Shown piece after piece: positions 2,388 through 4,065 of a stretch of DNA of 4,065 nucleotides (positions are counted from its first letter, which is position 1; each line of letters opens with the position of its first letter). The DNA is from a virus (lineage: Duplodnaviria > Heunggongvirae > Uroviricota > Caudoviricetes). The DNA lies in the IMG/VR virus record IMGVR_UViG_2695420822_000018; one strand, 5' to 3'. Made by a program: the position numbers and the translations under genes. Below the pieces are notes generated by a model. The model was not told the DNA's origin. It saw nothing but the letters and a program-made list of their open reading frames with translations, and made no database searches.

Positions 2388-3587
2388 ATGCTGTTTGTGC
2401 TTATTCTAAGCAACCGGGCAGCATCATACGGGGCAATTATGGCCGCATTACCATACATGCAACTGTACATAGCTGATTACCTGGCTGACACCATGCATTT
2501 GTCAGCAGAGGAGCACGGCGCGTATTTGTTGCTGATGTTCAATTACTGGCAAACAGGAAAGCCAATACCCAAAAACAGGTTGGCAAAAATTGCCCGTCTG
2601 ACTAACGAGCGATGGGTTGATGTTGAACCATCCTTGCGGGAGTTTTTTTGTGATAACGGCGACGAATGGATGCATCTTCGGATTGAGGAAGATCTGGCAT
2701 CTGTCAGAGAAAAATTAACCAAAAAATCAGCCGCAGGAAAAGCATCTGTTCAGGCCAGAAGAAGCAGAAAGGAAGCAGATGTTCAAACAAAACAAGAGAG
2801 AAATTTAACAGGTGTTCAAACAGATGTTGGAGTGATGTTCGAACATGATGCCAACACAAAGGCAACTAATAAAGATACAGATAAAGATCTAAAAACAGAT
2901 CTAACCCATCCCAAACCCTTCCCTTCCGGAAGGGAGTTTCGGGATTTTGTGGCTGGAGTGCTTGAGGGGAGATTATCTGGCGGTACTGCAGCGGAATTTT
3001 GTAATTCTGCGGTGGTTGCGTTGCAGGCTGCTGGCCTGGATGTCTGTCGTGAGTATCCGGTGCCAGAGCGTGGTGACGGTTGCGGAGGGCGGATTGATAT
3101 CGTCGTGACTGACAGGAACGGTGTCCGGTGTGGGAGCGAGCTTGACCGAAATTCTCCGCGACAGAAATCACTGCTCAAAATCGGTGCTGTTGAAACCGGG
3201 ATATGTGTCTTGCGGCGCAGTGATATCGCAAGGCACACCGAGCAGGGAATTCTGGTTATCGGTGGGGCTGTTCGCCAGAAAAAATTTGACCCGTTGTCAG
3301 TTGATCTGCCCGACTGGTTGCCAGAAACACTCTGGCATGAGTGGGTCCAGTTCAGGCAGGCATTGCGAAAACCGATTCGAACGGAGCAGGGCGCTAACGG
3401 GGCGATACGGGAACTGGAAAAATTCCGTCAGCAGGGTTTTACACCTGAGCAGGTGATTCGACACAGCATCGCCAATGAATACCAGGGTCTGTTCGCGCCG
3501 AAAGGTGTTCGGCCTGAGACGTTGCTCCGACAGGTTAACACCGTCTCGTTGCCGGACAGTGCGATCCCGCCAGGCTTCAGGGGGTAA
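2388..3587 (+). CDS. O-like replication initiation protein: DUF1376 (YdaU-like) N-domain, K/D/T-rich linker, Cys-containing central segment, DnaT-like C-terminal tail
   Basis: Long ORF, stop TAA at 3585-3587. An alternative start at 2439 (MAALPYMQLY...) is plausible because the first 17 residues (MLFVLILSNRAASYGAI) are hydrophobic and atypical. The C-terminus ...RQVNTVSLPDSAIPPGFRG matches the E. coli DnaT C-terminus (...RDVNTVSEPDSQIPPGFRG) as I recall it. It sits immediately upstream of the DnaC-like gene. Confidence 0.85.
   Translation: MLFVLILSNRAASYGAIMAALPYMQLYIADYLADTMHLSAEEHGAYLLLMFNYWQTGKPIPKNRLAKIARLTNERWVDVEPSLREFFCDNGDEWMHLRIEEDLASVREKLTKKSAAGKASVQARRSRKEADVQTKQERNLTGVQTDVGVMFEHDANTKATNKDTDKDLKTDLTHPKPFPSGREFRDFVAGVLEGRLSGGTAAEFCNSAVVALQAAGLDVCREYPVPERGDGCGGRIDIVVTDRNGVRCGSELDRNSPRQKSLLKIGAVETGICVLRRSDIARHTEQGILVIGGAVRQKKFDPLSVDLPDWLPETLWHEWVQFRQALRKPIRTEQGANGAIRELEKFRQQGFTPEQVIRHSIANEYQGLFAPKGVRPETLLRQVNTVSLPDSAIPPGFRG
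2743..2905. repeat. Iteron-like repeats (core TGTTC/TGTTG at 2747, 2780, 2813, 2825, 2836) followed by an AT-rich tract with two AGATCT palindromes; candidate phage origin inside the O-like gene
   Basis: Seen in sequence: cagatgttcaaaca, caggtgttcaaaca, cagatgttgg and gtgatgttcgaaca with 33-33-12-11 bp core spacing, then aaagatacagataaagatctaaaaacagatct. Established knowledge: the lambda origin lies inside the O gene and consists of iterons plus an AT-rich region. Origin function here is inference. Confidence 0.4.
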
Positions 3588-3593
3588 CAGACC

Positions 3594-4065
3594 ATGAAAA
3601 ATATTGCGACAGGAGGCGTTCTGGAGCGTATCCGCAGACTGACCCCACCACATGTAACCGCCCCATTCAGAACGGTTGCGGAGTGGCGCGAGTGGCAACT
3701 TGCTGAAGGCCAGAAACGTTGCGAGGAGATCAACCGCCTGAATCGTCAGTTGCGGGTGGAAAAAATCCTGAACCGCTCCGGCATCCAGCCGTTGCACCGG
3801 AAGTGTTCGTTTGCGAATTACCGGGCGCAGAACGACGGTCAGCGACATGCACTGAGTCAGGCGAAATCCATAGCTGACGAACTGATGACAGGCTGTACGA
3901 ATTTTGTGTTCAGCGGTAAGCCCGGCACCGGAAAAAATCATCTTGCAGACGCGATTGGCAACCGGCTGATGGCGAAGGGGCGTAGCGTGATTATCGTCAC
4001 CGTGTCCGATGTCATGAGCGTGTTGCATGAGAGCTACGACAACGGCAAATCCGGTGAAAAATTTT
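3594..4065 (+). CDS. DnaC-family replicative helicase loader (prophage paralog); 5' partial, continues past the window end
   Basis: ATG at 3594 with AGGGGG RBS. The translation MKNIATGGVLERIRRL...NRSGIQPLHRKCSFANYRAQNDGQRHALSQAKS...FSGKPGTGKNHLADAIGNRLMAKGRSVIIVTVSDVM aligns closely with E. coli DnaC, including the Walker A motif GKPGTGKN. No stop codon before the window end. Confidence 0.92.
   Translation, partial: MKNIATGGVLERIRRLTPPHVTAPFRTVAEWREWQLAEGQKRCEEINRLNRQLRVEKILNRSGIQPLHRKCSFANYRAQNDGQRHALSQAKSIADELMTGCTNFVFSGKPGTGKNHLADAIGNRLMAKGRSVIIVTVSDVMSVLHESYDNGKSGEKF

Follow-up and report, generated by a model that had tools for sequence, protein, structure and literature searches.

Several described systems pair a replication initiator with a helicase loader encoded by the next gene. 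In phage lambda, the C-terminal region of initiator O is held to bind loader P, and the Oam29 protein, from which only the last 5 residues are missing, is inactive (PMC6022878). In Escherichia coli, dnaT and dnaC are adjacent (PMC5778457), and the C-terminal tail of DnaT is highly flexible by nuclear magnetic resonance (PMC5778457); dnaC itself is considered a domesticated phage gene (PMC5509034). DopC, a domesticated chromosomal gene product related to lambda O, has its C-terminus replaced by a 'DnaT_C' motif (HHpred to 2ru8_A), retains a lambda O-like HTH_36 N-terminus and is encoded beside the loader-type, lambda P-like DopE (PMC5509034), so that the literature already contains an O-like protein with a DnaT C-terminal motif. 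Lastly, the Rac prophage of E. coli K-12 and its relatives contains the gene pair ydaU-ydaV. Here we analyse such a pair in a 4,065-nucleotide stretch of DNA (the window) from the Caudoviricetes record IMGVR_UViG_2695420822_000018, in which the YdaU initiator ends in a 19-residue tail resembling that of DnaT and precedes a DnaC-like loader gene. Across phage initiators that share the YdaU-type module, the type of tail co-varies with the type of loader, and it is this co-variation that is worth following up.

The region that attracted attention in a first-pass annotation (3288-4065) comprises the 3' third of a 399-codon open reading frame (ORF) and the first 157 codons of the following gene. 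It comes from a Rac-like lambdoid E. coli prophage, whose replication module consists of a YdaU initiator and a YdaV DnaC-like loader. Positions 2388-4065 show 99.9% DNA identity to a prophage of E. coli FDAARGOS_944 (NZ_CP065613), where the counterpart of the 399-amino-acid (aa) ORF carries a YdaU family annotation. Apart from an insert of ca. 126 aa in the YdaU linker, this stretch and the ydaU-ydaV genes that many E. coli genomes carry in Rac-like prophages are ca. 92% identical at the DNA level, with the same genes, order and neighbourhood, and an identical C-terminal module and tail; some part of 2388-4065 is matched in 1751 of 5426 complete E. coli genomes. Annotated neighbourhoods read helix-turn-helix (HTH) repressor, cro-like HTH, ydaT, ydaU, ATP-binding protein (ydaV) and DUF977, and a Pfam scan of the window ORFs gave the same gene order (HTH_3, HTH_3 / P22_Cro, YdaT_toxin). 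ydaU is thus located after the repressor, cro-like and ydaT genes and before the DnaC-like gene, and ydaU and ydaV occupy the O and P gene position of the lambdoid early-right operon. The 399-aa protein matches PHROG 6451, 'primosomal protein' (E 2.3e-116), and its DUF1376 domain scores 87.6 bits against a Pfam cut-off of 30.1. The pair itself is an ordinary, well-distributed module and a member of the known YdaU/YdaV (Rac-type) family. Some GenBank phage records name the ydaU product 'primosomal protein I', and the similarity of YdaU to DnaT is already registered by annotation pipelines.

The C-terminus of YdaU, RQVNTVSLPDSAIPPGFRG, is identical at 16 of 19 positions to that of E. coli DnaT, RDVNTVSEPDSQIPPGFRG (DnaT 161-179); the DnaT reference sequence was checked and is 99-100% identical to database DnaT. 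The NCBIfam DnaT equivalog PRK02854 aligns with residues 381-399 only, to model positions 161-179 (E 4.7e-4 and 19.8 bits with the last 99 aa; 15.5 bits with the whole protein, against a cut-off of 201 bits), and a phmmer search of PDB retrieved the DnaT C-terminal domain 2ru8_A (E 2e-4). Pairwise alignment, which the first-pass annotation had proposed as a check, gave 37% identity over 98 columns by BLASTP (E 4e-10). That annotation had regarded the last 100 residues as DnaT-like, which holds for the terminal 19 but not for the remainder. The DnaT DNA-binding domain PF17948 has no match in the 399-aa protein at E<=1 in Pfam, although it does match other phage initiators at 1e-14 to 1e-18. With the tail removed, a profile of 148 sequences of the YdaU-type module compared with DnaT 84-160 gave an insignificant profile-profile E value of 0.16, and comparison with an enlarged DnaT-like profile including phage homologues was likewise insignificant (E 0.11-0.89). 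Outside the tail, YdaU and DnaT have in common a short 'PDW.P' start and a similarly spaced three-helix bundle, weak evidence at best, and the YdaU module fails to align with the DnaT residues that contact single-stranded DNA (ssDNA; F124, Y127, W128, K143, R146).

Phmmer and BLASTP yielded no alignment of the 399-aa protein to DnaT 1-88, and YdaU has DUF1376 instead of the DnaT oligomerisation domain and the acidic PriB-binding linker (D66, D70). The flexible tail RDVNxxSxPDxxIPxGFRG is the only one of four features defining DnaT that YdaU displays; the protein stays under the PRK02854 cut-off and lacks both PF17948 and the N-terminal domain with its acidic linker. YdaU is therefore not a member of the DnaT family. 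It is not a member of the lambda O family either, and the Pfam scan found no match to Phage_rep_O (PF04492) in the 399-aa protein. The earlier label 'O-like' is apt for the position and role of the protein but not for its N-terminus.

The tail is predicted to be disordered, with a predicted local distance difference test score (pLDDT) of 50-67 in AlphaFold2. In DnaT orthologues, the majority-residue fraction is 0.83 in the tail, 0.89 in the folded domain and 0.79 in the N-terminal domain. The DnaT tail is hence flexible yet conserved about as well as the folded domain, which is the pattern expected of a binding motif. A further reading, mimicry of the SSB C-terminus (DDDIPF-COOH) by the tail, was rejected because the Phe of the tail is not C-terminal.

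The downstream gene, which starts 6 nt after the ydaU stop codon, had been called a close DnaC homologue, and this was borne out: YdaV residues 1-156 are 43% identical to E. coli DnaC (EcDnaC) from residue 1 (E 2e-51), and DnaC chain 6qel_G was matched with E 1.3e-41. The translation has an AAA+ core with the Walker A motif GKPGTGKNH (IstB_IS21, E 9.6e-10) and an EcDnaC-type N-terminal, DnaB-binding region. Its 157 visible residues score 309.9 bits on the NCBIfam model PRK12377 (curated cut-off 389) and 166 bits on the DnaC equivalog PRK07952 (cut-off 357); because the YdaV-type model PRK12377 scores higher than the DnaC equivalog, YdaV appears to be a paralogue and not DnaC itself. By homology, it would bind and load DnaB. 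The gene was not matched by lambda P (PF06992). The proposal that the locus combines an initiator with a DnaC-type loader, and is not a lambda O/P pair, was thus upheld by DUF1376, the absence of lambda P and the DnaC-like gene immediately downstream.

To define how far the tail extends beyond YdaU, we scanned viral contigs for coding sequences of PDxxIPxGFxG with a stop codon next and obtained at least 120 stretches with a match. Among the matches listed, to which all the following counts of tail-bearing initiators refer, 119 of 119 with the stop codon were genuine in-frame ORF ends of initiator-sized proteins, and the 103 complete proteins fell into 20 clusters. Ahead of the tail stood at least five kinds of domain, namely the YdaU-type module, PF17948 as a true DnaT domain (E 1e-14 to 1e-18), Phg_2220_C, the C-terminal domain of lambda O type, and a domain of the type 'YP..AF.AW...TFFGP'. 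The lambda O-type domain shows 35% identity to lambda O 145-277 (E 4e-26), in an alignment that stops exactly where the two tails begin. In 35 distinct phage tails, positions that the search pattern left free (R-19, D-18, V-17, N-16, I/V-14, S-13 and R-2) agree with DnaT. Because it follows at least five kinds of penultimate domain and agrees with DnaT at unconstrained positions, the tail is a portable, homologous short motif, a unit separate from the three-helix module.

These proteins include a natural chimera in which a DUF1376 N-terminus nearly identical to that of YdaU is joined to a genuine PF17948 DnaT domain and the tail. Three further clusters of chimeras combine unrelated N-termini with the DnaT domain. 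All these chimeras bear on how the chromosomal dnaT-dnaC operon arose.

We then classed the tails and the next genes of 119 viral-contig initiators with a YdaU-type module, found by the pattern IANG[WY]QGLF. The DnaT-like tail (..PDxxIPxGFRG) was followed in 36 of 39 cases by a DnaC-like loader with an EcDnaC-type N-terminus. Behind the tail DKDYGxTEIPxWARD (IPxWAR), 27 of 29 initiators had a different DnaC-like protein, of ca. 290 aa and with a Cys-rich N-terminus, and all four initiators with an HTGF... tail preceded a short DnaC-like protein, with DnaB coming next in three. The lambda P family (PF06992) followed the tails HWNxxxAW[ER]DF[LI] (18 of 18) and DFNNTDW... (6 of 6); four lambda P-type representatives were scanned and matched PF06992 at E 1e-50 to 1e-62. 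Lambda O itself ends in ...LDLTNTDWIYGVDL / ...KPKLDLTNTDWIYGVDL (TNTDWIYGVDL), with the P gene next, and the same lambda O-type folded domain bears a DnaT-like tail in another set of phages. It is therefore the tail, and not the folded domain preceding it, that matches the loader. The '...HTGF..K.Y..QDPHWF' subgroup, with a DnaC-like protein of ca. 200 aa and then a DnaB-like helicase, is the only sampled class with its own helicase.

Among themselves, the loaders that follow DnaT-tailed initiators share 47-100% identity, and with host DnaC they share 47-54%; each loader lineage occurs behind several types of C-terminal domain. The association of tail and loader is therefore old and has outlasted many domain exchanges, as judged from this divergence of the loaders, down to 47% identity, and the variety of domains before each lineage. 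The earlier suggestion that a DnaT-like C-terminus is tied to a DnaC-type loader accordingly receives comparative support, in that the tail predicts loader type almost without exception on the shared module and recurs behind at least five unrelated kinds of domain; its wording, that the initiator 'mimics' DnaT, presumes a direction. The dnaT-dnaC operon may instead have descended from a phage initiator-loader module, because phage initiators with a genuine PF17948 domain exist and dnaC is regarded as a phage gene that became domesticated (PMC5509034).

The explanation that fits these data best, and in which we place middling confidence, is a Rac-like module whose YdaU tail docks a DnaC-type loader on the initiator-origin complex. 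YdaU would be the origin-binding initiator, a positional and functional analogue of lambda O, built from DUF1376, a linker with iteron-like repeats in its coding DNA, the three-helix module and the disordered 19-residue tail. The tail would act as a short linear motif for docking of the loader, be it YdaV of the phage or DnaC of the host with DnaB attached, and YdaV, as a DnaC-family AAA+ loader, would deliver host DnaB. In this arrangement the tail would be the functional counterpart of the C-terminal end of lambda O, which docks lambda P. The likeness with O-P extends to the location after the immunity region, the two-part initiator and the repeats inside linker-coding DNA, and lambda O-like tails, with lambda P next, are found on many initiators that have the YdaU-type module; the window differs from O-P in having DUF1376 and not Phage_rep_O, a tail with IPPGFRG and not TNTDWIYGVDL, and an AAA+ DnaC-like loader and not P. 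The likeness with dnaT-dnaC consists of an upstream protein with the same tail after a three-helix bundle and a downstream DnaC-family loader. Because they share the same motif and both genes lie directly upstream of a DnaC-type gene, the YdaU tail and the flexible tail of DnaT are likely homologous docking peptides. We found no paper in the literature searched that describes the DnaT tail as a loader-binding element or assigns the tail any role.

Several points weigh against this explanation. To begin with, for 44 of the 103 complete tail-bearing initiators the fetched locus lacks any DnaC-like or DnaB-like ORF, and the gene that comes after them is often DUF977. Because of these cases, the tail needs no phage loader, and host DnaC or any other host partner fits equally; the phage loader seems dispensable or frequently lost. 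Near-identical initiators have DUF977 directly downstream in some contigs and a DnaC-like gene in between in others. Moreover, preprimosome structures (2026) assign PriA docking and ssDNA filament formation to the DnaT C-terminal domain and propose its N-terminal domain as the recruiter of DnaB/DnaC, the mechanism of which, according to the same paper, 'remains unknown' (PMC13377028). A review reports no documented DnaT-DnaC interaction, though the genes share an operon (PMC5778457). As for the initiator, we found in the literature searched no paper that shows origin binding by DUF1376, and no experimental work on YdaU function.

The main rival takes up the first of these points: the tail would dock on host PriA or another restart protein (PriB, PriC), with the initiator replacing DnaT and the host restart primosome loading DnaB. 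This agrees with the tail-bearing initiators that have no loader of their own, with those in which a full PF17948 DnaT domain precedes the tail, and with the docking of the DnaT C-terminal domain on PriA HD2/CTD by a conserved hydrophobic interface, the residues of which are shown only in figures (PMC13377028). It does not predict, however, that the type of tail shifts with the type of loader on the same module, including in enterobacterial-type phages that use lambda P, and the tail also occurs behind domains unrelated to DnaT. Furthermore, the crystal structure of DnaT 84-153, without the tail, 'fit the protein density well' in the preprimosome (PMC13377028). We consider docking on PriA or another restart protein unlikely.

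Phages with the tail and no loader must also capture the host DnaB complex, as would be expected if the tail bound not the loader alone but the DnaB helicase, either by itself or solely in complex with DnaC. Nevertheless, two other DnaC-like subfamilies and lambda P, which presumably all load DnaB as well, occur with other tails; these pairings point to the loader as the variable partner, with the limit that hosts may differ between groups, and make direct binding to DnaB distinctly improbable.

The co-variation itself could have another source, because the tail codons adjoin the loader gene and mosaic recombination could co-transfer both by linkage; the counts of tails and next genes, besides, are not phylogenetically independent. 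The tail would then have no partner-recruiting role and might serve in self-assembly of the initiator or in ssDNA binding. The distance of 6 nt between tail codons and loader start makes co-inheritance easy, and DnaT 1-161 forms dimers while the full-length protein forms trimers, which has been modelled as C-terminal contacts adding the third subunit (PMC5778457). Yet the association persists at 47% loader identity and through repeated exchange of the upstream domain, the tail is unchanged in phages without a loader, and in lambda O the corresponding last residues are essential and lie in the P-binding region (PMC6022878). Linkage without recruitment is thus rather improbable, and docking of a DnaC-type loader by the tail remains the reading that we prefer.

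The three-helix module that precedes the tail is itself widespread. AlphaFold2 with an alignment, run on the C-terminal 103 aa, placed helices at aa 313-325, 333-348 and 353-362 with pLDDT >90; a single-sequence run of the whole protein was poor (pLDDT 47). In a HMMER search of 1.84 billion cluster representatives with residues 297-399 as query, 2716 clusters matched at E<1e-3, most of them over the three-helix core only (consensus LPxWLxxxxWxxWxxxRxxxxKPxT...SIANGxQGLF), which stands near the C-terminus of proteins of 250-350 aa. The N-termini before the core, in 127 proteins scanned, were HTH_36 (33), DUF1376 (25), Phage_rep_O (13), DnaD_N (8) and others, and because it occurs behind such different N-termini the core is a widespread adapter module of phage initiators. 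The DnaT-like tail ends only 16 of the 147 top representatives, the remainder carrying other recurrent short end motifs. These include LYRREGVM, ...RTID.E / IDMG.IDA.H, and ...[FI][IS][ST/P]EDF-COOH, the last of which is reminiscent of the SSB C-terminal tip, so that the SSB mimicry rejected above for the DnaT-like tail may fit these tails.

Coordinates of the features in the window are collected in Table 1.

Table 1. Features of the ydaU-ydaV module, in positions of the window
Feature	Position	Strand	Basis
ydaU-family replication initiator gene, with in-frame insert	2388..3587	+	399-aa ORF, PHROG 6451
DUF1376 N-terminal domain (aa 22-104), presumed origin-binding part	2451..2699	+	Pfam PF07120, E 7.3e-25
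Three near-palindromic GATGTTCRAACA repeats, candidate origin iteron set	2778..2845	.	Repeat search, linker-coding region
In-frame insert (~aa 172-297)	~2901..3278	+	Alignment with the standard 285-aa YdaU, which is without insert
YdaU-type three-helix C-terminal module (aa 298-375)	3279..3512	+	LPDWLP...W..W...R....KP.T...SIANEYQGLF; AlphaFold2
DnaT-like C-terminal tail (aa 381-399), RQVNTVSLPDSAIPPGFRG, proposed loader-docking peptide	3528..3584	+	16/19 identical to DnaT
ydaV, DnaC-like AAA+ helicase loader, first 157 of ~248 aa	3594..4065 (window end)	+	Homology to DnaC

The position of DUF1376 in the protein and the architecture of the module suggest that this domain binds the origin. The repeats in the linker-coding DNA would constitute a candidate prophage origin, recalling the lambda ori iterons inside gene O. 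The third GATGTTCRAACA copy is a perfect palindrome, TGTTCGAACA, and TGTTCRAACA, at no more than one mismatch, has 6 strand matches against 0.86 expected, a number reached in none of 200 shuffles. An A/T-rich stretch containing GATC runs on from the repeats to about position 2905.

The insert of ca. 126 aa stands in place of 12 residues of the standard YdaU linker. Of the 5426 complete E. coli genomes, only 2 gave full-length matches bearing it; the gene has an intact reading frame there, yet the Prokaryotic Genome Annotation Pipeline (PGAP) annotates it as two pseudogene pieces. No Pfam family was found for the insert in the Pfam scan; it matches phrog_1347, of unknown function (E 9e-20), and shares 40% identity with a segment of the Providencia phage PSTCR7lys protein named 'replication protein O'. 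A D...E.D pattern had pointed to a PD-(D/E)xK-type nuclease, which family and structure searches did not support.

Upstream of the module, positions 900-2400 of the window resemble a composite and not a single natural sequence. Runs of N occur at 1332-1336, 2053 and 2249-2259. The 5' end of ydaT is present twice (1189-1331 and 1626-1767; the copies are 98-100% identical but differ by 1 nt in spacing, so that the frame shifts) and its 3' end in triplicate (1938-2052, 2044-2158 and 2260-2374), and there are two alternative cro-like genes, at 956-1198 (HTH_3) and 1421-1648 (P22_Cro/YdaS). The matching E. coli genome has a single copy of each upstream element that is duplicated in the window.

We tentatively propose, at somewhat less than even confidence, that the tail which DnaT has in common with many enterobacterial phage initiators is a docking peptide for DnaC-family loaders, that it belongs to a code of exchangeable tails, and that dnaT-dnaC is a domesticated phage module. 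If so, the tail would be the missing link in the recruitment of DnaB-DnaC by the PriA-PriB-DnaT preprimosome, and the phage data yield the concrete and inexpensive hypothesis that the conserved flexible tail of DnaT is a DnaC-binding peptide. Likewise, an exchangeable C-terminal 'tail code' (IPxGFRG, IPxWARD, TNTDW..., HWN..W..F and others) would specify the loader, whatever folded domain precedes it, and the dnaT-dnaC operon would be a phage initiator-loader module that was domesticated and retained this code. The rule suggested for phages is that the helicase loader of an initiator may be read from its last 10-20 residues, which would aid the annotation of replication modules and the design of tail swaps.

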